From: a virus
Taxonomy: Duplodnaviria; Caudoviricetes
DNA: 45,523 nucleotides
IMG/VR virus record: IMGVR_UViG_3300044708_000233
Coordinates: 1-45,523 of that record
Reading direction: 5' to 3' (one strand)
This document shows, in pieces, positions 7,602-37,439 of this stretch. Every line of letters begins with the position of its first letter. Within the stretch, counting starts at the first letter, position 1. The notes below the pieces were generated by a model. It made no database searches, had not been told where the DNA came from, and saw only the letters and a program-made list of their open reading frames with translations. The position numbers and the translations under genes were made by a program.

Positions 7602-10124
7602 ATGGCCGAGGTCGTCGTCCTGCGCAACCCCCTTGACACGAGCCGGCGCCGCCGCTGCCGCCTGGCCGATGGTGTCATGTTGCTTGACTGGGTCGAACGC
7701 GAGGAGCCGGCCGGCGGGCACCTGATGCGCGCGGTCTATGTCAATGGCCACGTCTGCACGGACGTGACCTACCGCACGCAGCCCGGCGACGAGGTGCTCG
7801 TCGCGTTCGCGCCGGGCGAAATTGTGGGCATGGCGGTGGTGCAGGCGCTGGTCGCCTTCGTGATCGGCTTCTTCGTCAACGCGCTGTTCGGCCCGAAGCA
7901 GCCGACCGCGGCCGACACGCCCCAGGCCTCTCAGGTCTACGGTATCGCGCCTCCGCGCAACGCGGTGCGCCTCGGCCAGCCCATCCCGGCCATCTATGGC
8001 TCGGTCATTTGCCTGCCCGATTTCGCTGCGCAGCCCTACACGTTCTTTTTCGGCAATGAACAGTACCTGCACGCCATCCTCTGCGTGGGCCTGGGCGAAT
8101 TCGACGTGACCGAGATGCTTTTCGGACAGACTTCGGCCGGGCCAGCCGCAACGCCGACCATTCCCGCAAGCGTCGTGCAGTGGACGGTGTTTCTACCCGC
8201 GACGCACGGCTCGACGTTCGGCGTGATCGAAGGCAATCGCGGCGTGCGGGAAAACGTCGTGAGCTCGTCCGCCGTGGGCAATCAGGAACTCGTCGCGCTG
8301 AATGCCGGCGGTGCGCTCGTGCCCTCGACGTGGTATTGGGCGTTCGGCAGTACGTTCGGCTCCGAGTATCCGCTCGGTGTTCATCTGTATAACTACGGGT
8401 CGCCGGCCGCCAAGCTCAGCGCGCTGCCGCAAAATCCCGCGCTCGGCGTCACGGCGCTGGCAACGGTGGCCATCATCTATCAACCCAGCGGTCTACCCAA
8501 TCGATATACCTGCGGTACGTATACGGCTACCGCCTACGTACCCTCGCAGAAGACCGGCTACTACGACTTGGTCCCGCCACCGGGCTACAGCCAATCGGGA
8601 CAGGTGAAATGGATCGGACCCTTCGCGACGTGCAAGCCCGGACAGCGTGGCAGCCTCATCGAGCTCGACTTCGTGTTTCCGAACGGACTGTATGTCGGGG
8701 ACTCGTCGGGCAACCTGCAAAACTGCACTGTGCAAATCACCACCGAGGCGCAAGCCATCGACGATAAAGGCGTCGATATTCCAGGCGCGCCGCTGACGTT
8801 CGTCGACACCTTCGTCGCGAAGGACAACACGCCGCAGCGCCAGACCGTCAAGCACGACGTCCCATCCGGCCGCTACCGCGTGCGCGCCCAGCGCACGAGT
8901 AATTCCGATCTCAAGGCTACGACCGCCGACCATGTCATTTGGGCCGGCTTGAAGTTCCAGCTCGACCCGCCACCCGCGGGCACGCGGGTCTACGGGGACG
9001 TCACCCTCATCGCGGTCGTGCTCAAGGCCACGAACGGCATTGCGAGCGACGCTGCGTCGAGCATGCGCTTTCGCGTCACGCGACGCCTGCGACCGCTGGC
9101 CGATGCGTCGGCCGCTACCGCACCCACGGTCAATCCGGCCGATGCGTTCGCCGATATCCTCTGCGCTCCCTACGGCGGCGCGCGCCCGAGTACAGCCGAC
9201 AAGATCGGCGACGAGCTCGACATCCCCGAACTGACCATGAGCCGCAATGCCTGGGCGGCGCACGACGGCTTCAATGCGGTATTCGATCAGCCCTCGACAG
9301 TGTGGGAGGCGCTCGGTCTGTCGGTGCAGACGGTGCATGCCGCACCCCTGCCAGTAGGCTCGCGCATGTCGCTCATTCACGACCAGGTACAACCCGTGCG
9401 GGCGCAGCTGTTCACGGATGCCAACATCGTCGCCGGCTCACTCAAGGTGAACCAGACCTTCGACCGCGTGGGCACGCCCGAGGGCGTGCGTGTGAACTGG
9501 CGCGACCCGACCACGTTCGGAGTTGTCGCGCTCCTGGTGCCACCCGATGCCCCCGACTTTTCGACGATCGACCTGTTCGGCTGCACGTCGGGCACCGTGG
9601 CGCAGGAGCACGCCAACCTCGCGGCGGCCAAGCGTCAGAAGCAGCGCGCCTCCATCGAGTTCGAGTGCGAGCTCGAAGGGCTCAACGTCTTGCCCGGCGA
9701 CCGTATCGGCGTCGCAGCTGGGATGGTGAAGTGGGCCCAAGGCGCGCGCGTGGAGTCCGTCGATGGGCTGGTGCTGACGCTGTCGACGCCGCTCATATGG
9801 ACGTCCGGCGCGGTGCACGCGGTGCAATTGCGCGACCCGGCCGGCGCGCCGGTGCGAATGGTGGGCGTCACGCGGGGCGATGCTGACAACGTCGTCGTGT
9901 TGCCCTCGGTGCCGTCCTTCACCGTCACGGGCGCGAATGCCAATCAGGAGGCGACCTCGCTGTCCTTTGGAGTGCAGGACCAGGAGATTACCGATTGGAC
10001 GGTCACGAAGGTCACGCCCTCGGGTTCGACGGTGACGCTGGAGTGCCTGACTTACGATCCCTCGATCTATGCCGGCGCCGCAGCCTTCACGCGCGGCGCG
10101 ATCACCCTGGACGAGGAGGCTTGA
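7602..10124 (+). CDS. Tail tip/host-specificity protein (gpJ-like hub with N-terminal gpI-like part), 840 aa
   Basis: N.VRLGQPIPAIYG, YLHAILCVGLG, GRYRVRAQR, TVNPA.A..D, LFTDANIVAGS, C-terminal YDPSIY. Confidence 0.85.
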   Translation: MAEVVVLRNPLDTSRRRRCRLADGVMLLDWVEREEPAGGHLMRAVYVNGHVCTDVTYRTQPGDEVLVAFAPGEIVGMAVVQALVAFVIGFFVNALFGPKQPTAADTPQASQVYGIAPPRNAVRLGQPIPAIYGSVICLPDFAAQPYTFFFGNEQYLHAILCVGLGEFDVTEMLFGQTSAGPAATPTIPASVVQWTVFLPATHGSTFGVIEGNRGVRENVVSSSAVGNQELVALNAGGALVPSTWYWAFGSTFGSEYPLGVHLYNYGSPAAKLSALPQNPALGVTALATVAIIYQPSGLPNRYTCGTYTATAYVPSQKTGYYDLVPPPGYSQSGQVKWIGPFATCKPGQRGSLIELDFVFPNGLYVGDSSGNLQNCTVQITTEAQAIDDKGVDIPGAPLTFVDTFVAKDNTPQRQTVKHDVPSGRYRVRAQRTSNSDLKATTADHVIWAGLKFQLDPPPAGTRVYGDVTLIAVVLKATNGIASDAASSMRFRVTRRLRPLADASAATAPTVNPADAFADILCAPYGGARPSTADKIGDELDIPELTMSRNAWAAHDGFNAVFDQPSTVWEALGLSVQTVHAAPLPVGSRMSLIHDQVQPVRAQLFTDANIVAGSLKVNQTFDRVGTPEGVRVNWRDPTTFGVVALLVPPDAPDFSTIDLFGCTSGTVAQEHANLAAAKRQKQRASIEFECELEGLNVLPGDRIGVAAGMVKWAQGARVESVDGLVLTLSTPLIWTSGAVHAVQLRDPAGAPVRMVGVTRGDADNVVVLPSVPSFTVTGANANQEATSLSFGVQDQEITDWTVTKVTPSGSTVTLECLTYDPSIYAGAAAFTRGAITLDEEA

Positions 10125-10130
10125 GAACCC

Positions 10131-10661
10131 ATGCTCATTTACCCGACCCTCTTGCCCTGTGCATCTCGCATCGAAGGTCATTCGGCGAGCGCGTTCGCGG
10201 GCCTCGTGCGTACGCCCATGGAGTCGGGCAACATGCGCCAGCGGCGCGCGCAGCGGGTGCTGCCGCAGCAGGTCTCGCTGACCTTCGTCATCGACCAGAG
10301 CGCCTACAGTGACTGGCTTGCATGGGTCAACGAATATGCCTGGGACGAATGGATCCTGATGAACTTGCCCGGGCTGCGCGCGAGCACCAGCGGCACCGAT
10401 ACGGCGCCGACCGCCGTGCGGTTCATCTCCGAGCTGCAAAGCGAGCTCATCCCCATCGACCGCCGGTGGCTGTGGCGTGCCCGTGTCACGGCCGAATACG
10501 TGCCGGCCGCGGCCGATTTCCTCGCGACCCATGGCGTGTGGATTGTCCCGGGGCAGCCGGCCGTGCCCGAACCGGCCTGGGTCTTCGCGGGGTCGCCCGA
10601 GTCGCCTTCGCCGGTTTTCACCGACCCGGGCACGCCACAGCTGCCCACCGTTGGCGTTTGA
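10131..10661 (+). CDS. Distal-tail (Dit/gpM-like) protein, paralog 1
   Basis: YP..LP..LVRTPMESG..RQRR...V.L.F...W..W...W..M.LP motif; Pro/Gly repeat tail. Confidence 0.65.
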   Translation: MLIYPTLLPCASRIEGHSASAFAGLVRTPMESGNMRQRRAQRVLPQQVSLTFVIDQSAYSDWLAWVNEYAWDEWILMNLPGLRASTSGTDTAPTAVRFISELQSELIPIDRRWLWRARVTAEYVPAAADFLATHGVWIVPGQPAVPEPAWVFAGSPESPSPVFTDPGTPQLPTVGV

Positions 10662-10673
10662 GGAGTTCACCTC

Positions 10674-12584
10674 GTGGCTGATATTCCTGCGCGCACCCGG
10701 CTCCTCATCGGCTCGACGTCGGAATGGGCGGCCAGTGACTTGGTGCTGGGTTTGGGCGAGCTCGTCGTCGAGCGTGCGGATGCGGTGGTCAAGCTCAAGG
10801 CGGGCGACGGCGTGACGCGGTACTCGGGGTTGCCCTTCGTGACGGCTGTTCCCGACGTGCCGCTCGAGTACCTGACCCAGACCGAAGGCGACGCGCGCTA
10901 TCTGCAGCTCGCAGGCATTTCGGTGGCACCGGCCGCGAACGCCGTGCCGCGCCTGGATGCGATGGGACTGCTGGCTAGCGGGATGATCCCTCCGCTGGCA
11001 TACCTCACCCAGACCGGGGCGGATGCGCGTTACCTGCAACTCAGTGGGATTGCGACTACGCCGACCGCGAACGCCGTGCCGCGCCTGGGCGCCGGCGGCA
11101 TGCTCGCCGCGGGCATGATCCCGGCGCCTGCGGCGATCGATGTCTCCACGGGTGTGGCCGATGCGGGCAAGCTGGTCAAGACGGCATCGACCGGCAAGCT
11201 GGACCAATCGCTGATCGCCTTCGCCCAAGATGTGGCGCTGCCTGACGGCAAGCGGCTCGCATGGGGCGACGGCTCGGCCTACATCCAAGGCAGCGGCGCG
11301 ACCGATGCGCTCACTGTGGGCGGCGCGACCTTGCGGCTATTTGGGGCTGCCTCTGGCGTGCTGGGCGTGCGCGAGGGAGGTGCCTACGGAGGTGCCGCGG
11401 CGAATGCGGCCTACGACACGCTCGTACTCGAGTCCAACGGGCAATCGGGCATTTCGATCCTGAGTCCGAACAACGTGTCTACGGGCATCGCCTTCGGGGA
11501 TCCCGAGAGCGCGACGCAAGGCTGGTTGCAGTACGACCACGCCACCGATACGACTTATATCGGTGCGGCCGGGGCGTCGAGGCTTGCGGTCTACGCGGGC
11601 TCGGTTCGGCCGCTGGCCCAGGTGCAGACGCCGGACGGCACGGCAGCAGCACCGGCTTACGCGTGGCTGGGATCGAATGGGCTTGGGCTGTATCGGCCCG
11701 CGGCTGATACGTTGGGTTTCGCCACGGCAAGCGTGGAAAAAATGCGCCTCATGCCATCGACGGATGCGCAATTGCTGGTTGGGTTGACTGTCCCCCTCGC
11801 TTCTGTCGCAGGACGTGGTGACATCGAAATTAACGGCGCCACCGAATCGACTATGACATTTGGCGTCGGCGGAATGACGGCGGGTATTTTGTATGCCAAT
11901 GCAACGGAATTTAGAATTGGCGCGTCGACCGGTGGCGCAGTGCGCTTCATGACATTTCGTACTGGCGGCGCTGAAAAAGTACACATTACGGAATCCGCTG
12001 ATGCGCAATTGCTTGTCGGCATGACGGCGCCCATTAATTTTGCAACCGGACGCGGATACATCGGTGTGAATGGTGGCTCAAGTTCGATCATTGATTTTTG
12101 TGTCGGTGGAGCATTAAGGGCCTATTTATTCGAAGACACCACAAATTTTTCGATGATGCACAATGGAGCAGGCAGCATCTATCTGGGTATCGGTGGCGCA
12201 CAAAAATTACAAGTCTCCAGTACGCAGCTTCTCGACCAAATCAACGGCGGGGTGGAGCTCGGTTGGCGCGATATGCCTGTGTCCAGCGTGGGCGGTAGCA
12301 TCACGGTCGATCGTGGGCACCGCGGGCGGTTGTTGATCGTGACCGGCGCCGCGGCGGCGATCACGCTTCCCGGTGATAGCGTCTTCAACGCCGGCGAAGG
12401 GTTTACGATTTTCAACCTGTCAGGCGGCAGCATCACGGTCGTCGAGCGCGTCACCGGCAGCCGCGCCTATCTGCGGTGGAACGGCATCACCGCCGGAACG
12501 CGCACACTGGCCGCGAACGGGACAGGTCGAATCTTCAGCATCGGCGGCAACACGTTCGTGATGACAGGCGAGCTGATCTCGTGA
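10674..12584 (+). CDS. Tail fibre/receptor-binding protein 1, 636 aa
   Basis: N-terminal Mtd_N/hyaluronidase-like anchor (W...DLVL..GE...E..KLKAGDG..YSGLPFV); Gly-rich beta repeats; DGTAAAPAY motif. Confidence 0.8.
   Translation: MADIPARTRLLIGSTSEWAASDLVLGLGELVVERADAVVKLKAGDGVTRYSGLPFVTAVPDVPLEYLTQTEGDARYLQLAGISVAPAANAVPRLDAMGLLASGMIPPLAYLTQTGADARYLQLSGIATTPTANAVPRLGAGGMLAAGMIPAPAAIDVSTGVADAGKLVKTASTGKLDQSLIAFAQDVALPDGKRLAWGDGSAYIQGSGATDALTVGGATLRLFGAASGVLGVREGGAYGGAAANAAYDTLVLESNGQSGISILSPNNVSTGIAFGDPESATQGWLQYDHATDTTYIGAAGASRLAVYAGSVRPLAQVQTPDGTAAAPAYAWLGSNGLGLYRPAADTLGFATASVEKMRLMPSTDAQLLVGLTVPLASVAGRGDIEINGATESTMTFGVGGMTAGILYANATEFRIGASTGGAVRFMTFRTGGAEKVHITESADAQLLVGMTAPINFATGRGYIGVNGGSSSIIDFCVGGALRAYLFEDTTNFSMMHNGAGSIYLGIGGAQKLQVSSTQLLDQINGGVELGWRDMPVSSVGGSITVDRGHRGRLLIVTGAAAAITLPGDSVFNAGEGFTIFNLSGGSITVVERVTGSRAYLRWNGITAGTRTLAANGTGRIFSIGGNTFVMTGELIS
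10869..11125 (+). repeat. Two tandem 132-bp (44 aa) repeats in fibre 1
   Basis: YLTQT..DARYLQL.GI...P.ANAVPRL...G.LA.GMIP starts at 10869 and 11001. Confidence 0.9.
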
Positions 12585-12908: not shown

Positions 12909-13433
12909 ATGCTGGCCTACCCGTCCACCCTGCCGTGCGTGTCTCGCATCGAGGGCCATTCGGCGACCGCTTTCGCTGGGCTGGTGCGTACGCCGATGGA
13001 AGCCGGCAGCGCGCGCCAGCGTCGCACGCACCGCGTGCTGCCGCACCAGATGACGCTCGTCTTTGTCATGGCCCAGGAGGTCTATGGAGACTGGCTGGCC
13101 TGGGTGAACGACAACGCGTTTGACCAATGGATCGCGCTGAAGCTGCCGGGCTTTCTCGCCTCGCGGGCAGGCACCGATACCGCAGCCGTTCCGGTGCGAT
13201 TTGTCTCCGATCTCACGATGGAGCTGATCCCCGCGCACCGCCTCTGGTACTGGCGCGCCCGCGTCAATGCCGAATGGCTGCCCTCAAGCGACGACCTGGC
13301 GTCGCGACCGTTCGGCCCGTGGGTTGTGTCGGGCGGCTCACATACCGACTGGGTCATCGCCGGCACGCCGGCGCAGCCTTCGCCCGACACGGTGACCAGC
13401 GGCACGCCTATCACGCCGAGCGCGGCCTATTGA
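12909..13433 (+). CDS. Distal-tail (Dit/gpM-like) protein, paralog 2
   Basis: 81 of the first 125 aa identical to 10131..10661 by manual alignment. Confidence 0.65.
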   Translation: MLAYPSTLPCVSRIEGHSATAFAGLVRTPMEAGSARQRRTHRVLPHQMTLVFVMAQEVYGDWLAWVNDNAFDQWIALKLPGFLASRAGTDTAAVPVRFVSDLTMELIPAHRLWYWRARVNAEWLPSSDDLASRPFGPWVVSGGSHTDWVIAGTPAQPSPDTVTSGTPITPSAAY

Positions 13434-22840: not shown

Positions 22841-23809
22841 TCAGGTTTCGTCAGGTAGTGGCGCGGATGAAGACCGCGGCGAGCGGCGGGACGATCGCAT
22901 TGCCGTAGGCGCGCACGCTTCCGATTCGGCATCCCTTGGCGCGTCTAAGGCTTGCAGCATCAAGTCCTGCCACGCCTGCCACGCCTGCCAATCGGCGTTG
23001 GATGGCGCGCAGTCGTCCCATTCCGGCGGGAAGCCCTGCAGCCAACGGGAATGTGCCTGATTCAATTGGCCGGCGCTTGCCGTCTTGGCAGTCGATCCAG
23101 TCGCATGGCGTCCAGAAATCAACGTGAACACCTGTTCCGACAGCGGTTTGCCCCGCGTCATTTCCGCCCGCGCCGCCAGGAATTCCAGGAAACCCGAGGC
23201 ACTGTGCCAATCCCTCGTCGCCGGCGTCGCCCAGGAGGCCAGCCGTGTCGCATCCGTCAGGGTCGTGCCGCTGTGCCGTCCGCTCGCCGTCGAATAGTCG
23301 CGCGCGCCCGAGCTCTTCGCATCCGTCGTCGTCGTCGTCGGCCAGCCAGCAAGCTGGGCCACGTTGGGCAACTCTGCCTTGCCCATCCCAGCCGACCCTC
23401 GTGCGTCCGCTGCCATAGTCGTCGGCCAGCCAGTACAGCCGCTGCCGGATGTGCGGCGCGCCGACGCCCGCAGCGCACAAATCGGCCGCCGCGCAGGCGT
23501 ATCGCGCGTGCTCCAGGTCAGCGCGAACAGCGTCCCACCACCGCAGGGCAGTAGCGTCTGCAACCTGCTCGCCATAGAGACGGCCAGGGCGACACTCGCC
23601 GATGAGACGGAACCACGCGGGCCACAGGTGCCGCTCGTCGGCAAAACCTCGGCGCTGGCCGGCGGCGCTGAAGGGCTGGCAGGGGCAGCTTCCGGTCCAA
23701 ACAGGTCGAGCGTCGGGCCAGCCTGCCAGTCGCAGCGCGAGGCTCCATCCCCCGATCCCGGCGAAGAAATGGCACTGCACGAAGCCGGCGAGTTCGTCGG
23801 CTCGCACAT
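22841..23809 (-). CDS. Overlapping alternative-frame ORF, putative methyltransferase beta polypeptide (start uncertain: 23809 or 23575)
   Basis: Three WPT/WAT repeats and LNQAHSRWLQGFPPEW (motif IX-like), which is missing from the alpha frame. Confidence 0.65.
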   Translation of the reverse strand: MCEPTNSPASCSAISSPGSGDGASRCDWQAGPTLDLFGPEAAPASPSAPPASAEVLPTSGTCGPRGSVSSASVALAVSMASRLQTLLPCGGGTLFALTWSTRDTPARRPICALRASARRTSGSGCTGWPTTMAADARGSAGMGKAELPNVAQLAGWPTTTTTDAKSSGARDYSTASGRHSGTTLTDATRLASWATPATRDWHSASGFLEFLAARAEMTRGKPLSEQVFTLISGRHATGSTAKTASAGQLNQAHSRWLQGFPPEWDDCAPSNADWQAWQAWQDLMLQALDAPRDAESEACAPTAMRSSRRSPRSSSAPLPDET

Positions 23810-23924
23810 CGATGATGCTTCGCTCGTCGACGACGCCCGGGGCAATGTGTCCGGCGTCGATGAGGTTGCGCAGCCACTGGGCGGCATAAGGGTCGATCTC
23901 GTTGTACCAAGCACCGCCGGTCAC
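22851..23924 (-). CDS. DNA cytosine-C5 methyltransferase, alpha polypeptide
   Basis: FFAGIGG (motif I), GSCPCQPFS (IV), GEQV (VI), PHIRQRLYW (VIII), AYGNAIVP (X). Confidence 0.9.
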   Translation of the reverse strand: MTGGAWYNEIDPYAAQWLRNLIDAGHIAPGVVDERSIIDVRADELAGFVQCHFFAGIGGWSLALRLAGWPDARPVWTGSCPCQPFSAAGQRRGFADERHLWPAWFRLIGECRPGRLYGEQVADATALRWWDAVRADLEHARYACAAADLCAAGVGAPHIRQRLYWLADDYGSGRTRVGWDGQGRVAQRGPACWLADDDDDGCEELGRARLFDGERTAQRHDPDGCDTAGLLGDAGDEGLAQCLGFPGIPGGAGGNDAGQTAVGTGVHVDFWTPCDWIDCQDGKRRPIESGTFPLAAGLPAGMGRLRAIQRRLAGVAGVAGLDAASLRRAKGCRIGSVRAYGNAIVPPLAAVFIRATT

Positions 23925-28936: not shown

Positions 28937-29163
28937 GGCGCCCGCCTACGGCGCGTGCGCGGCGGATGCGTGATGCTCGTGCTCTCGATGACCACGCCCG
29001 CGGCCAGCAGCCGCTCGACGTCGCTGGCCGTGGCCACGCGCGCCGTCACGGCGCCCTTCATGGCGCGTGATTTGTTCGGTGCGCGCATCAAACGTTCGCT
29101 TGCACCGTCGGATGTGCTCGTGCTCGCGAGCACATACAGGCGCGTGTCGCGAATGGTGGTCAT
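28933..29163 (-). CDS. Hypothetical protein, 76 aa
   Basis: AGGAGG RBS; RLMRA.N...ARVAT..DV..LL.AGV.IE pattern. Confidence 0.6.
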   Translation of the reverse strand: MTTIRDTRLYVLASTSTSDGASERLMRAPNKSRAMKGAVTARVATASDVERLLAAGVVIESTSITHPPRTRRRRAP

Positions 29164-30239
29164 GATTCACCTCCTTGCCATTTCTCGCTGTAGGCCGCGC
29201 TGAGCTGGGCGAGCTCGTCGGGCTCGAGCGCGCTGCGCGCCGCGTCCAGCACCAGCAGCGCCCCGTCGCTGTCTGTCGTGCCGGCCATGGCGACCAGGTA
29301 CTGCGCCAGCGACAGCGGCACCGGCGTGCCGTCGATTTCGCCCGCGTCGTTGGCGGGCGGCTCGACCGCGGTACGTGTGCGCGATGCGCGGCGCTTGCCG
29401 ATGACCTCCTTCGCCGAGGTCGGTGGCGCGCTGCTACCGGCCGCGTCGCTGCCTTCGCCCGGGGGCGTCAGCTCGAACCAATCGCCCGGCGTGCTGATGC
29501 CATCGCGCAAGCTCGCGAAGATGCGCTTCAGCTGCACAACCTGCGCCGGCTGAATGGCATCAAGTCGGCGCTGGATGCGTTTTTCGATGTGTGCCTTCGT
29601 GACGTCGTACGGCGCGAACGCCTCGAGCATCCTCGCCATGCCCTCCGGGCTCGTATCGGCGCGCGTGCGCAGCGTGGCGGTGGCTTGATCCATGGCCATT
29701 GCGATGACGTCGCCAGGGATCAGCGCGAGGATGCAGGCCCGCTTGCGGCGTTGCGCTTGTGATGCGCAAGTTTCAAAAATATCTCTTTCGTCCTTCAGCG
29801 GATAACCGCCCTTTTTCGTGTCGCGCCAGTGGCGCACATGGAATTTGATCGCCTCGCGGTTAACCGTCTCGTAGTCGACCGCGAAGGCCTCAATTTCCGA
29901 CACGCCCACGCCATCGGCACCGACAAAGCGTGAAAGTTCCGACCAACCCGTCGCCATGTTGCCCCAGGCCAAGCGAATCGCTTCGGCCGAACGGATGCTC
30001 GGCCCGGCGATGTCGGTGCCGCCACGCTGAAAGCTGTATTGAGATTCCTCTGCTAAGCCGGCGCGTTGGAAAGCATCCCGAATACGGTCACAGGCATGCA
30101 GCTCGTTGCGCGGATTCTGCCGCGCGCTGTAGATCATTGCGAGAACTTCAGTCGACTCGCGAGCCTGCTGCACGCGACCGGCAGCGGTATCGGCGAGCGC
30201 GCGCCGGGCTTCGAATGGATTCGTCGTGATGTCGTTCAT
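29160..30239 (-). CDS. Putative recombination/single-strand annealing protein, 359 aa
   Basis: PRNE..A.DRI, YSFQRGG.DI.GPSIR.AE...WGN, RRKRACIL.LIP family usually paired with phage exonucleases (function inferred). Confidence 0.55.
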   Translation of the reverse strand: MNDITTNPFEARRALADTAAGRVQQARESTEVLAMIYSARQNPRNELHACDRIRDAFQRAGLAEESQYSFQRGGTDIAGPSIRSAEAIRLAWGNMATGWSELSRFVGADGVGVSEIEAFAVDYETVNREAIKFHVRHWRDTKKGGYPLKDERDIFETCASQAQRRKRACILALIPGDVIAMAMDQATATLRTRADTSPEGMARMLEAFAPYDVTKAHIEKRIQRRLDAIQPAQVVQLKRIFASLRDGISTPGDWFELTPPGEGSDAAGSSAPPTSAKEVIGKRRASRTRTAVEPPANDAGEIDGTPVPLSLAQYLVAMAGTTDSDGALLVLDAARSALEPDELAQLSAAYSEKWQGGES

Positions 30240-30255
30240 TGATTAATTCCCCTTT

Positions 30256-31398
30256 CCTGCCTATCCGGTCCACGCCTTGAGCGCCCTCGCCAGACCTCGC
30301 CGACCCATACCCGTACCTGGCCCAGCCATGTCCTTGCCTGCCTTGCCCCGCCACGCCATAGCATTTCGTGGCCTTGCCTGTACGTGCCTGCCTGGCCCGG
30401 CCTGACCTTGGGCAGCCAGTCCTCGATCACGCCTGCCTTACCTCCCCGTATCCAGTCACGTCCCGTCTCGCCGCACCTAGCCGTGCCTGCCGTGGGCTAC
30501 CCTGGCCTTGTCGTGCGCAGCCAGTCCTCGCCTATCCACGCGTCGCACGGGCTCGCGTCGCCTGCCCCACCTCGCCTCACTAGGCCAAGCCCAGCCTCAC
30601 CAATGCCGTGCCTGCCTTGCCACATCCTTCCAATCCCGACCTATACGCTCGCGTCTCGCCTGCCTTGCCAATCCAGGCCACGATGCGCTCGCGCCTCGCC
30701 TGCCTCGCCAATCCAGGCCGTAACGAGCCGCGCGAATCCTCACTGCGCCGCGCCCTACCCGGCCCTGCCTGCCAAAGCCAAACCACGCTCCGCCGCGCCT
30801 CACCGCGCGCAACCATTCCACGCCGTACCTGCCACGCCATGCCTCGCCTCATCCGCTACCGCGCCTTACCTCGCCTTCATCCACCCCTCCGCGCCTGCCT
30901 CGCCACGCCATACCGTGCAATCGGAACCCGCCAGCCCAGACCCGTCCTCGTCACGTCATTTCACGCCTCTCTAGACCGAACCGCGCCGCGCCTGCCGCGC
31001 ACCGCCCCGCCGTGCCGTACCGGCCCAAACCCGTTCCCCGCCCCGCCTCGACGCCGCCATGCCCAACCTGCCTCGCCGGGCCTGTCACTGCCTGTCCCAA
31101 CATCGCCCCACCAACCCTAGCCTGCCTGTCCGCGCCTGCCTCTCCGTGCCTGTTCCAGCCCACACCAGCGCCCGGCCGTACCTCGCCGTGAGCGACCACT
31201 CCAACCGTCGCCTGCCTCGCCGGTCCGAGCCGTGCGTACCCCTCGTCACCCGACCAGCCCTCGCCTGCACCTCGCCTGCCTTCCGCGCCTGCCGTACCAA
31301 GCCTCGCCGTGCCGCGCCCAACCCCGCCACTCTGAGACGAGCCGAACCTCGTCGCGCCATGCCTGCCTCACCACTTCAGTCCGTGCCATTGCCTGTCC
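30256..31398 (-). repeat. ~1.15 kb non-coding array of GGY-NN pentamers with GGCAGG delimiters; putative guide-RNA array
   Basis: 5-nt periodicity (+ strand RCC-NN); 21 copies of CCTGCC spaced mostly 40-100 nt; fills the gap between two co-oriented genes. Confidence 0.85.
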
Positions 31399-31400
31399 AA

Positions 31401-31922
31401 TCAGGCTGCATTGCGGTCATCGAACCAAGTCCGAAGACCGACAATACGCTCAATCAACCCATCGATTTCCGAAGCCAGCCCGAGGGTCAATGCATAACCG
31501 CGCGCACGGTCGAGTGCTGAACGTGCGCGACTGAGTTCCGCATCCACATGGGCGCGTTTGAGGTCTTCATCGGTGCGCAGTTCGTCGACCGTCACATAGC
31601 CTTGTTGGTCGGCCGGCGCCTTTGGATTGCGCACGTAGTACGGCACCTTGTAGGTCGTCGTTGTCGTGATCGTCTTCACCCGATAGGTGCAGATGATTTC
31701 GCGCGCCTGCACGACCCAATGCTGATACGCCGCGCGCTGCAGATCCCAGTCGATCAGCGCATGCAACGGGCTTTTGGCGTCGCGCGCCGCTTCGACCACC
31801 GCTTCGGCGGTCAGTCCGTATTCGCCGCGTTCGATTTGGGCGAGCGCATCCTGGATGCGCTGCTTGGCATCGGCGTCGCCGGCCTTGCGCCGCGGAGGTT
31901 GAATCGGCGCGCGTTTCATCAT
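31401..31922 (-). CDS. Accessory protein of the RAMP-array locus, 173 aa
   Basis: LTAEAVVEAARDAKSPLH..IDWD...AA.QH...QAR.II motif; ATGA-coupled to the RAMP gene. Confidence 0.75.
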   Translation of the reverse strand: MMKRAPIQPPRRKAGDADAKQRIQDALAQIERGEYGLTAEAVVEAARDAKSPLHALIDWDLQRAAYQHWVVQAREIICTYRVKTITTTTTYKVPYYVRNPKAPADQQGYVTVDELRTDEDLKRAHVDAELSRARSALDRARGYALTLGLASEIDGLIERIVGLRTWFDDRNAA

Positions 31923-32803
31923 GCGCTCCCTTCAGCGGCCGCGCCATTGCCGCGGTAGCCGCCCTTGGTCGCACCTACAGGGGGCGGAATGCCATCATCG
32001 CCACTGATGTCGCGCGACTGGCGTACCGTCGCCTTGCGACCCCGCTTGCCGATGACCTCATCCTCAAACCAGTCGAGCGCCTCTTCGGCCTCCTCGTCGA
32101 ACGGCTCGGCGTCCTCCATGGCCTGGAGCTGTGCGGACCTTCCCCAGTGCGCTTTCACATCCAGATACTCGGGATCGTCCGCAGCGCATACCCGAAAGCC
32201 GCCGAATGACCCCGACCCCTTGCCCTGGCGCCATTCGCCCACACCCGAGGAAATGCCGGCCGTGTGCAACAGGTTGGCCAGCCCCTGCGGGCGAACGAGC
32301 AGCGGCGGGTAATGCAATGTCAGCTCGGTTGCCCACGCGGGCAGGATGCAGCGCGTACGGACGTCGGGCGTATGGTTGATGTCCGAATTGCGCGTGATGG
32401 CCATGTGCAAGAACGGATGACCCCAGACCGCGATGCGATCCCAGTCGACCCGCAGCAAACGAAGGATCTTGCTCTTCGCCATCCCCGGCGTGTCGAGCGC
32501 CGCGGTGCCCATCGCCTGCTTGAACATCGTCGGCAGCAGGGCCAGCAGTGTCGGCGCGTCATCGACGCGCAGTCGGTACGGAGAGCTGCGGAATTCGGCT
32601 ACCGGGTCATGTTTCAGGCTCGTCGCCTTGTCGGCCGCCGTCTTTCGGCCGCTGGGGCCGAGCAGCTGCTGCCACACCTTCGACGTCATGCGGTTGAGAA
32701 TCAACGGCGTCGTGCCGACGATGTGGAACGTGATCGATGCTTCCTCGATCTTGAGGAAGTCGACGATTTCTTCAGACTTCTTCGCGCTTGCCTTGGTTGT
32801 CAT
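31919..32803 (-). CDS. Solo Cas7-like RAMP-fold protein, 294 aa
   Basis: N-terminal strand ITFHIVGTTPLILN, LPTMFKQAM helix, C-terminal G-rich loop AGISSGVGEWRQGKGSGSFGGF. Confidence 0.75.
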   Translation of the reverse strand: MTTKASAKKSEEIVDFLKIEEASITFHIVGTTPLILNRMTSKVWQQLLGPSGRKTAADKATSLKHDPVAEFRSSPYRLRVDDAPTLLALLPTMFKQAMGTAALDTPGMAKSKILRLLRVDWDRIAVWGHPFLHMAITRNSDINHTPDVRTRCILPAWATELTLHYPPLLVRPQGLANLLHTAGISSGVGEWRQGKGSGSFGGFRVCAADDPEYLDVKAHWGRSAQLQAMEDAEPFDEEAEEALDWFEDEVIGKRGRKATVRQSRDISGDDGIPPPVGATKGGYRGNGAAAEGSA

Positions 32804-32984
32804 GATTGTTCCAATGTGCCCGGTTGTTGATTAATTCGACGATCCGTGCCGGGCTTTCACGGCATGCGTCAAATTCTTTGATCGCTTGGCGAAATGCGAT
32901 GCTTGCAAAGAAGGACCAGTTCAGCGGCATCGTGTCCATTGCGGCCTTCAAATCCTTGGTAACGTAAATGTTCACGCGTGCCAT
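32772..32984 (-). CDS. Small RHH-type regulator/antitoxin-like protein, 70 aa
   Basis: MARVNIYVTKDLKAAMD...NWS..A..AF; GAGG RBS. Confidence 0.6.
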   Translation of the reverse strand: MARVNIYVTKDLKAAMDTMPLNWSFFASIAFRQAIKEFDACRESPARIVELINNRAHWNNHDNQGKREEV

Positions 32985-32993
32985 GCTGACACC

Positions 32994-33911
32994 TCAGACA
33001 TACGTTTCAGAGCCGCCCGCCCACCGTGGCAAGCCGACGTTTTCGACCTCGGACGAATACCCGGGCCACTCCCCGCGCTGCCGGCAGCGCGCCAGCGACT
33101 CGAGCGCCTCGCGGTTTTCGCGCGCCGCGATGTCCCAGGCCTCGGCGTCGAGCTCGACAACCCTTGCGGCGAACGGGTACTTGCTCTCGACGAACGCGAA
33201 GATGAATCCCGCCACGCTGATGTGCGAGGCGAGCGCATACCCGGTGCTGTACCAGACGCACTGGTGGTGGTACCCGTAGCGGGCGATGGCCGCCTGCACG
33301 CCGCGCCGGCTCGCGTCTTGGGTTGACTTGAGATCCAGGATCATCGCCAGCGGCTGGTGCGGCGTGCCGAACTCGCGGTTGACGCAGTCCGTGCGGCATC
33401 GGCAGCCCAAGCCCGTGGCCGGGTCGGTCCAGAAGGCCGACACCTCGCAGGCGCCGCCCTCGAGGATTTCGGCCACGGCGTCCAGGCGGCGAAGCGAGGC
33501 GGCCTGTCCGAGCGCGGTAGCGTACTGCTTCGGGGTGATGGCAACACGCCCCGGGTTCGCCTCGACGAACTCCTTCCAGGCCTTTGCCGCGCGGGTCTTC
33601 ACCGCCGGCCCGACCACATAGCGCCGGTCGAACTGGTCCGGCTCGAGCGTCGCGCAGTGGCACAGGGTGCCGGCGAACAGCGCCCCGGTCGGGTCGTCCC
33701 CATCGTCGTCGGTCAGGAACACCTCGGGCACCGGCTGAACGCAACGCGCGAAGTAGTGGAAGGCTGACTTCCGGTACCACGTCAGGTCACTGTTCGAGAC
33801 CTCCGGCAGGCTCTGGTACACGGCGTTCGGCAGGCCATAGACGAGCCCTTGCCGGGGCAGCTCCGCCCATGCGCGGGGCGTCATCGATGCAGGAAAAGGA
33901 ATCGCGGCCAT
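32994..33911 (-). CDS. PD-(D/E)XK exonuclease (RecE/exonuclease VIII, DUF3799-like), 305 aa
   Basis: VSNSDL, GTLCH...LEP, EVSAFW.D..TG..CRCRTD, DLKST, YGYHHQ..WY. Confidence 0.88.
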   Translation of the reverse strand: MAAIPFPASMTPRAWAELPRQGLVYGLPNAVYQSLPEVSNSDLTWYRKSAFHYFARCVQPVPEVFLTDDDGDDPTGALFAGTLCHCATLEPDQFDRRYVVGPAVKTRAAKAWKEFVEANPGRVAITPKQYATALGQAASLRRLDAVAEILEGGACEVSAFWTDPATGLGCRCRTDCVNREFGTPHQPLAMILDLKSTQDASRRGVQAAIARYGYHHQCVWYSTGYALASHISVAGFIFAFVESKYPFAARVVELDAEAWDIAARENREALESLARCRQRGEWPGYSSEVENVGLPRWAGGSETYV

Positions 33912-34292: not shown

Positions 34293-35165
34293 ATGCGCGC
34301 CCGCAGCCTCAAGCCCGGATTCTTCGAAAACGAGGAACTCGCCGAGTGCAGCGCCTGGGCGCGCCTGTGCTTTGCGGGCCTGTGGATGCTCGCCGATCGC
34401 GAAGGCCGGCTCGAGGACCGACCGCGGCGCATCAAGGGCGCCCTGTTCCGCTTCGACGCGCTGGAAATCGAGCCGCTGCTCGATGAGCTCGAAGTGCACG
34501 GCTTCATCCTGCGCTACGCCAATGAAGACGGCCGATTCATCGAAATCCTCGCCTTCAAGAAGCACCAGGCACCGCACTACTCCGAGAAACCGAGCACCAT
34601 CAAGCCGCCGATGGTCGCGAAAACAGACGCCATCATGCCGGCCCAACTCCCGGAGTCAGCCGGTCATGATGACGATGAATTCCGGAGAACTCCGGAGAAC
34701 TCCGGAGTCGACCCGCCATTAAGAGGGGGTCACAACCCCCTGACTCCTGACTCCGGACTCCTGACTCCTGACTCCGGGTCCTCCTCCTCCCTTCGGTCGG
34801 AGGTAGCGGTTTCGCGCTCGGCGCGAAGCCCGCCACCCACAACGGTCGAGCAAAAACGACCCCCGAAACCCCCGCCGCTGCCGCCCTTCGACGGCAGCAA
34901 TGCCGAGGCGCTCAACGGCCGCGCGGTCGTGCGCCTCGCCGAGGCCTGGGAGCTGCCCGAGCAGTGGGGCGTCGACGCCGAGGCGCTCGGCTGGCGACCG
35001 GCCGACGTGCTGCGACAAGCCGAGCTCTTCCGGCAGTACTGGACGCGGGGACGAGGACGCGACACCCGGCGCAGCGTCAAGGGCTGGTCGCAAAGCTGGT
35101 CGAACTGGCTCGCGAAGGCCAGCCGCAGCAGTGGCAGCAGCAGCAACGAAAGACCCCGGCCATGA
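34293..35165 (+). CDS. Replication initiator protein, 290 aa
   Basis: RARSLKPGFF.NE.L...RL.F.GLW..ADREGRLEDRP.RIK N-domain; DnaT-like C-domain (F..YW...W...W.NW). Confidence 0.85.
   Translation: MRARSLKPGFFENEELAECSAWARLCFAGLWMLADREGRLEDRPRRIKGALFRFDALEIEPLLDELEVHGFILRYANEDGRFIEILAFKKHQAPHYSEKPSTIKPPMVAKTDAIMPAQLPESAGHDDDEFRRTPENSGVDPPLRGGHNPLTPDSGLLTPDSGSSSSLRSEVAVSRSARSPPPTTVEQKRPPKPPPLPPFDGSNAEALNGRAVVRLAEAWELPEQWGVDAEALGWRPADVLRQAELFRQYWTRGRGRDTRRSVKGWSQSWSNWLAKASRSSGSSSNERPRP
34681..34775 (+). repeat. Iteron-like repeats in the initiator linker (probable replication origin)
   Basis: TCCGGAGAAC x2 plus TCCGGAG at 34681; (T/G)GACTCC x5 at 34741-34775. Confidence 0.65.
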
Positions 35166-36596: not shown

Positions 36597-37439
36597 ATGC
36601 ACGATCCCTTCAAGATCGACGGCCCGACCTGCCTGAGTTTCAGCGGCGGACGCACGAGCGCGTACATGCTTTGGCGCGTGCTGCAGTCCAACGATGGCCT
36701 GCCGCCCGAGGCCGTCGTGTGCTTCGCGAACACGGGCAAAGAAGACGAAAAGTCGTTGATCTTTGTTCGTGACTGCGCCGAAGAATGGGGTGTTCGCATC
36801 TTGTGGCTGGAGTACCGCGACGGCGATCCTCGCTTTGCCGTCGTCTCGTTCAACACCGCAAGCCGCGAAGGCGAGCCGTTCGCGGCATTGATCCGCAAGC
36901 GCAACTATCTGCCGAACCCAGTCGCACGTTTCTGCACTACTGAGCTCAAGGTGTTGACGATCGAACGGTATTTGAAAGCGCAAGGATGGATGGAATGGGA
37001 CAGCATGATCGGTGTCCGTGCAGACGAGCCGCGACGAGTCGCCAAGATGCGCATCGATCCCAGCGGTGGCCGTTCCGGTGTTACTCGCCTTGTTCCGCTT
37101 GCCGATGCGGGCATCAGGGCGGCCGATGTTGGGGCGTTCTGGCGTGCGCACTGCTTCGACCTTGGGCTGCCGAATAACGGCGGCACAACGATGCACGGCA
37201 ACTGCGACCTGTGCTTCCTTAAGCCGGCCGCGCAGGTGCTCTCGCTCATCACCGAAAACCCCGGCCGGGCGATTTGGTGGGCCAGCATGGAGGGAAGCAT
37301 CACGAACCCCGGTATCACGAACGGCGGCACATTCAGAAATGACCGGCCGAGCTACGCGCAGATGGCACGCTTCGCCAATGAGCAGCGCGACTTGTTCGAT
37401 CCCAACGAGGAAGCCATCGTGTGCTTCTGCGGAGATTGA
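36597..37439 (+). CDS. PAPS-reductase-family (adenine nucleotide alpha hydrolase) protein
   Basis: SFSGGRTS, FANTGKE, RFCT.ELK, IGVRADEPRR, GNCDLCF, CFCGD. Confidence 0.85.
   Translation: MHDPFKIDGPTCLSFSGGRTSAYMLWRVLQSNDGLPPEAVVCFANTGKEDEKSLIFVRDCAEEWGVRILWLEYRDGDPRFAVVSFNTASREGEPFAALIRKRNYLPNPVARFCTTELKVLTIERYLKAQGWMEWDSMIGVRADEPRRVAKMRIDPSGGRSGVTRLVPLADAGIRAADVGAFWRAHCFDLGLPNNGGTTMHGNCDLCFLKPAAQVLSLITENPGRAIWWASMEGSITNPGITNGGTFRNDRPSYAQMARFANEQRDLFDPNEEAIVCFCGD

Follow-up and report, generated by a model that had tools for sequence, protein, structure and literature searches.

The window analysed here, a stretch of 45,523 nucleotides covering positions 1 to 45,523 of IMG/VR record IMGVR_UViG_3300044708_000233, is a complete, integrase-bearing temperate phage: it has a 142-base repeat at both ends and a completeness of 100, and it carries head, tail and terminase genes together with an integrase gene. 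The public run that matches it best is a soil metagenome, which may be its source. A leftward gene run leads from an exonuclease VIII-like gene through a 70-aa ORF to vipr, a 173-aa partner gene, an array stretch and a phrog_3657 gene (Table 1). vipr and its partner overlap by 4 bases (31919-31922), and the 1.16 kb between the partner and the phrog_3657 gene contain no gene-like frame. A first-pass annotation of this DNA had described the product of vipr as a "stand-alone" Cas7-like protein; given the overlap with a conserved partner gene and the GGY-NN array behind it, vipr is not stand-alone.

Table 1. Positions of the vipr locus, its context and the features compared in other phages (L-numbers denote fetched loci)
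Feature	Position	Strand
vipr: 294-aa protein with predicted RAMP fold, thumb and G-loop, helical extension (211-253), low-confidence tail	31919..32803	-
vap-type accessory gene, 173 aa, phrog_15946, mostly helical	31401..31922	-
vrRNA-type array, putatively staggered, ~233 units	30257..31398	-
70-aa ORF overlapping vipr start, upstream (context)	32772..32984	-
Exonuclease VIII-like gene, upstream of vipr (context)	32994..33911	-
phrog_3657 gene directly after array (context)	29160..30239	-
Staggered array, Gordonia phage Pipp	L284:3629-3860	
Staggered array, Gordonia phage UmaThurman	L385:2129-2440	
Staggered array, Gordonia phage ODay	L383:1164-1360	
Staggered array, mycobacteriophage ByChance	L384:2117-2280	
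Sibling guide match	L003:4900 / L233:4266	
Sibling guide match	L004:2971 / L005:6598	

All motifs claimed at first pass are present in the translation of 32803-31919 (minus strand, 294 aa): a first strand followed by GTTPL (G30-L34), the helix motif P91..F94K95.A97M98, the thumb-like segment RNSDINHTPDVRTR (residues 138-151), the G-loop (G187-G201) and a charged C-tail, where model pLDDT lies below 60 in ten-residue blocks from residue 261. A search yielded 288 homologues among 1947 candidates; in the 120 of these that were aligned, R151, G187, R192, G196 and G201 are invariant, W191 is kept in 112, and position 190 is Asp in 113 and Glu in 7. The window protein carries Glu, as part of a sub-clade (P0001-P0006 and P0034) in which Glu190 replaces the G-loop Asp with which SUSP1 Vipr reads the first G; in the two arrays available for this sub-clade, first-position conservation is not clearly altered.

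The AlphaFold model (mean pLDDT 84.1) matches type III RAMPs among solved structures (Foldseek, best E 8.6e-5, 10-15% identity to Cas RAMP chains; best VIA match to RAMPs with Z 8.6, rmsd 3.4 and 152 aligned), and its best viral fold match is closer (E 8.8e-11). As the model matches RAMPs, the proposed Cas7/RAMP-like fold is borne out at the level of structure prediction, and the outcome named beforehand as speaking against it, a fold unrelated to RRM/RAMP, did not occur. A helical extension at residues 211-253 is found in 120/120 homologues and is missing from SUSP1 Vipr and Pipp Vipr. A role of this C-terminal extension in the processing of staggered arrays was considered and dropped, because the 207-aa Pipp Vipr lacks the extension and yet has such an array.

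The profile of the 120 homologues has SUSP1 Vipr as its sole match among PDB sequences at E<=1 (E 1.1e-4); hhalign against the SUSP1 gene gives a probability of 91% (E 1e-6, 51 columns); and phrog_4652 is common to both proteins (1.5e-8 for the window protein, 1.4e-96 for SUSP1 Vipr). Overall identity is 22%, with the similarity confined to the C-terminal core. SUSP1 Vipr binds GGY through H17, R138, D177, W178 and R179, as given in the accessible text of 10.64898/2026.04.26.720927; R138, W178 and R179 align with R151, W191 and R192 of the window protein, whereas D177 and H17 correspond to E190 and N37, two substitutions among the five GGY-reading positions. Around the DNA-clamp residues of SUSP1 Vipr (K33, R39, K82 and K88) the alignment is poor, and K82, which SUSP1 Vipr requires for silencing, falls on a gap.

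We identify the ORF at 32803-31919 as vipr, the RAMP gene of a VIPR system (Yoon et al. 2026). The RRM core, thumb and G-loop that define a VIPR RAMP homologue are present in the predicted structure, and the locus combines vipr and vap in a viral genome, where neither cas genes nor a CRISPR array was detected. It resembles SUSP1 VIPR (type II; Yoon et al., 10.64898/2026.04.26.720920) in being phage-borne, in joining vipr to one accessory gene and a one-strand GGY-NN array, and in sharing phrog_4652, the thumb Arg and the G-loop Trp-Arg, likewise with no cas genes or CRISPR array detected. The two differ in Vipr length (294 aa with the helical C-terminal extension vs. 195 aa), in the G-loop acid (Glu190 vs. 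Asp177), in the accessory gene (phrog_15946 vs. phrog_5926) and in the guide-bearing part, which in the window is a single unbroken array of 1.14 kb, jointed by GGCA, and in SUSP1 four separate RNAs with structured tails. Because the accessory protein is not detectably related to SUSP1 Vap1 (hhalign 0.2%) and belongs to a different PHROG, and because the array is continuous, with no separate tailed vrRNAs, the window VIPR, a member of the published system, is not type II.

On the vipr strand, positions 31400-30241 hold 70 GGYNNGGY motifs, compared with 8.2 +/- 2.9 by chance and a maximum of 18 in 1000 shuffles; every other kilobase, on either strand, has at most 8. The parsed array comprises 233 units (199 five-base, 22 four-base, 17 of them GGCA, 11 six-base and one seven-base), with entropies of 0.82, 0.75, 1.63, 1.90 and 1.97 bits at unit positions 1-5, and it shows no codon-position bias in any frame. 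The array is non-coding, with a conserved GGY and a variable NN, and matches what Yoon et al. (10.64898/2026.04.26.720920) define as vrRNA. Five folded array pieces were no more stable than shuffles, Rfam gave no match, and no sigma-70 promoter was found. The window array and that of the closest relative, L001, have no 20-mer in common, though their Vipr proteins are 72% identical. Two segments between joints are very short (13-14 bases), near-duplicate guide pieces lie around 30640-30720, and a 159-base contig from another study's run (X2) is identical to the array part at 30338-30496.

Four-base GGCA units shift the register by one base. In the relatives, 244 of 350 GGCAGGY spacings are 4 mod 5, the commonest being 49, 59 and 54 bases, and 216 distinct in-phase segments of 7-15 units are found. 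The legend of fig. S18 in 10.64898/2026.04.26.720920 describes staggered vrRNA arrays as guides with a 1-base overlap, which matches the GGCAGGY joints here; the likeness is to the text of the legend only, and the window array has extra six-base units. Given the four-base GGCA joints, we infer that the window array is of the published "staggered" form, with the same joint motif.

The three-part layout of vipr, accessory gene and array is conserved. In the viral homologue loci examined (the best 80 of 406 confirmed), the accessory gene is present in 80/80, and the array lies on the vipr strand in 74/80 and on the opposite strand in 0/80; in GTDB loci the accessory gene is found in 33/45, with the array on the gene's strand in 38/45 and on the other strand in 1/45. 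Among the homologue loci, L276 alone carries a second dense GGY-NN stretch on the other strand (~10832, minus). No close relatives were confirmed in metagenome_contigs. A tblastn search returned 30 cultured-phage records (25 Mycobacterium, 5 Gordonia), and in all four examined (Gordonia phages Pipp, UmaThurman and ODay and mycobacteriophage ByChance) vipr, the accessory gene and a GGCA-jointed array occur together; the annotations of Pipp, UmaThurman and ByChance place a hypothetical protein over the array. The accessory protein of the window gave generic helical hairpins only in a fold search and no PDB sequence match, its Atlas clusters are unnamed, and no nuclease family was detected in it with Pfam, NCBIfam or PADLOC. 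It likely strengthens silencing.

We consider it very probable that the gene encodes Vipr and that, together with the accessory gene and the GGY-NN array of this temperate phage, Vipr forms polymers on array RNAs, by which DNA of rival phages is bound and silenced. The array would be transcribed together with vipr and the accessory gene as an early-region transcript; the transcript would be cut at the joints into ~17-21 tail-less guides of ~45-70 bases, as we infer here; Vipr subunits, each covering five bases, would coat the guides; double-stranded DNA would be read by the NN pairs, with every third base skipped; and the bound filament would, aided by the accessory protein, block transcription of the competing phage. 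The evidence from the window consists of the RAMP fold model, the homology to SUSP1 Vipr, the 5-base-period array, the GGCA joints and the conserved three-part layout. That RNA is produced, that a filament forms and that DNA is bound and silenced is taken from work on SUSP1 and P. fulva (10.64898/2026.04.26.720920, 10.64898/2026.04.26.720927 and 10.64898/2026.10.15.759431). The earlier suggestions of a minimal RNA-guided effector and of a 5-nt filament step are in keeping with the VIPR architecture.

A further proposal is made tentatively, as a possibility to which we lean rather less than against it: these loci may form a large, widespread branch of VIPR, whose tail-less staggered arrays of up to ~20 guides would serve a reciprocal war between sibling temperate phages, in which a guide would fit the rival's copy of a gene common to both phages and miss the copy of the phage that carries it. 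The one-base slip at GGCA would here be the processing signal, so that no ribozyme or structured tail would be needed, and six-base units would extend the code, not break it.

Guides of the fetched loci were searched against the same loci with arrays masked, and skips of 0-3 bases were compared. Perfect 8-unit matches for skips 0-3 numbered 0, 8, 0 and 1 of 472 guides (shuffled mean 1.38, maximum 5 in 200), and in a smaller set inside the 472 they numbered 0, 4, 0 and 0 of 360 (shuffled mean 0.32, maximum 2 in 60). Three of the four matches in the smaller set are in codon phase in long reading frames; among the eight in the larger set, one is out of codon phase and two come from near-identical low-complexity guides. 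A full-length test with <=2 mismatches gave no excess (5 for the 1-base skip vs. 4, 1 and 1 of 294; shuffles 1-6), and a 7-unit test was not significant (11 vs. 8, 5 and 7 of 360; 7/60 shuffles reach 11). This sequence signal, though thin, suggests that the relatives' guide matches follow the 1-base skip code. The matches lie mainly in phage genes of other contigs, and those of two pairs of sibling phages, L003/L233 and L004/L005 (82-94% identical), are reciprocal: a guide of L004/L005 matches the methyltransferase-like gene of L003/L233 at 16/16 and its own copy at 12/16, and a guide carried by L003/L233 fits the neck-like gene at 16/18 in L004, L005 and L234, at 14/18 in L003 and also at 16/18 in L233's own copy (both gene labels were read from the sequences).

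Guides of the window itself had no target above chance in any search. Five patterns were used in six scans of viral_contigs (4, 120 of about 420, 17, 3, 11 and 21 loci) and one pattern in a scan of metagenome_contigs (66 loci), and the best extensions (20/28, 19/26, 19/22, 17/22, 20/24, 19/22 and 22/26) were no better than chance. A 26-base guide pattern with <=3 mismatches was found in 0/401 genomes of one order, chosen by host guess; no excess was seen in 138 fetched loci including related phage records; and a codon-phase test likewise gave no excess (lowest p 0.026 among 28 tests). Two candidates were rejected: a match of 19/20, obtained when the joint unit was left out, lies in a contig of 31% GC and has a score likely among 17 seeds, and a 12/14 match of a guide half to the vipr gene itself is reached by 8/60 shuffles. 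Nine in-phase guides of the four actinophages, with six off-phase or short segments left out, had no target in those four genomes.

This lack of targets bears on a second explanation, namely that the window holds a VIPR locus whose array is partly decayed, so that many guides no longer target anything. Six-base units are in excess (10/221 in this comparison vs. 0/233 in L001 and 37/7283 in other loci), and few GGCAGG spacings are 4 mod 5 (6/20 vs. 11/18 in L001), below the share in the relatives given above. Still, we find decay doubtful: both genes are intact and keep the invariant residues of the family; GG conservation of the array (0.86, 0.87) is near the relatives' median (0.89, 0.82); the array piece in X2, from another study, is identical; and the cleaner guides of L001 likewise had no target in the same 138-locus search. 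The irregular units are also not confined to a single assembly: a contig of sequencing run X1 covers 30000-31900 without difference, although the sample may be the same.

Distinctly less probable is an array-guided system that acts on RNA, host genes or genes of its own phage instead of rival phage DNA. SUSP1 Vipr pairs with RNA in vitro, according to the accessible text of 10.64898/2026.04.26.720927, the L233 guide matches the neck gene of its own contig, and no target was found for the window guides; against this, 14 window guides gave no self match above shuffles (lowest p 0.11), the relatives' matches are mainly in phage genes of other contigs, and the partner protein has no detected nuclease family.

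To the last alternative, a Cas7 decoy that would poison class 1 complexes of the host, whether or not the repeat RNA takes part, we give almost no credence. The protein has a predicted RAMP fold close to Csm3/Cmr subunits, with the RRM core, thumb and G-loop of the Csm3/Cas7-group RAMPs of type III CRISPR, and it lies in a phage, where Cas-mimic anti-CRISPRs exist (AcrIB3, AcrIB4 and AcrIF25 are likewise phage proteins linked to class 1 subunits). But its identity to Cas RAMPs is just 10-15%; it has no Cas family match in Pfam, NCBIfam or PADLOC, and neither 41 proteins (NCBIfam) nor 15 (PADLOC) included a Cas family; no CRISPR-like repeat family, crRNA array or other Cas genes were detected in the window; its best fold match is viral; its own array and partner gene are near-obligate companions; and the 5-base period is at odds with the 6-base step of class 1 crRNA (10.64898/2026.04.26.720920). 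According to PMC13131331, AcrIB3 and AcrIB4 share 38% identity with their Cas models; AcrIF25, which the first-pass annotation had called Cas7-like, is described there as an 18-kDa mimic of the Cas7-Cas7 interface, not a RAMP homologue; the window protein, in contrast, has its own repeat array. An anti-CRISPR role, as had been suggested, is therefore unlikely, the gene showing so little identity to Cas RAMPs and travelling with its own array and partner.

With the gene read as vipr, a system published in 2026 accounts for it; 99 VIPR-like array clusters have been recovered in 10.64898/2026.10.21.760802. The architectures confirmed by RNA sequencing in the discovery paper (10.64898/2026.04.26.720920) are ribozyme arrays and single-RNA systems; staggered arrays are listed there and are not among them, and the word "staggered" is absent from the accessible text of the competition paper (10.64898/2026.10.15.759431). 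Our analysis adds a large array of putatively staggered form, sequence evidence, though thin, that sibling phages are targeted in this branch with the skip code already described, and staggered arrays with vipr and the accessory gene in four actinophages in culture (Pipp, UmaThurman, ODay and ByChance), thereby making testable the cutting of a tail-less array into guides and the acquisition of new guides. Compact multi-guide arrays could also serve multiplexed gene silencing.

Several further observations concern the surrounding genome. Integrase matches are at best 34% identical, and the host was not identified from them. The 70-aa ORF upstream of vipr has a homologue in L001 alone among the fetched loci, and because this homologue has a weak CcdA match, below cut-off (E 0.007), the ORF may encode a small DNA-binding regulator. 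The gene after the array is of different families in the window (phrog_3657) and in L001 (RecT-family, 7608-8444), yet the last 27 residues of the two proteins are 56% identical, which points to an apparent domain swap. A seven-base tandem repeat of 5.3 copies at 34739-34775, inside the replication-initiator gene, is possibly part of an origin. The tail gene region contains a 251-base duplication (73%; 10131-10381 / 12909-13159) and a 132-base tandem duplication (71%; 10860-11123). Finally, a DNA methyltransferase gene (22851-23924, minus strand) and a PAPS-reductase-like gene (36597-37439, plus strand) with a weak SspD match (E 3.1e-12) have possible DNA-modification functions.
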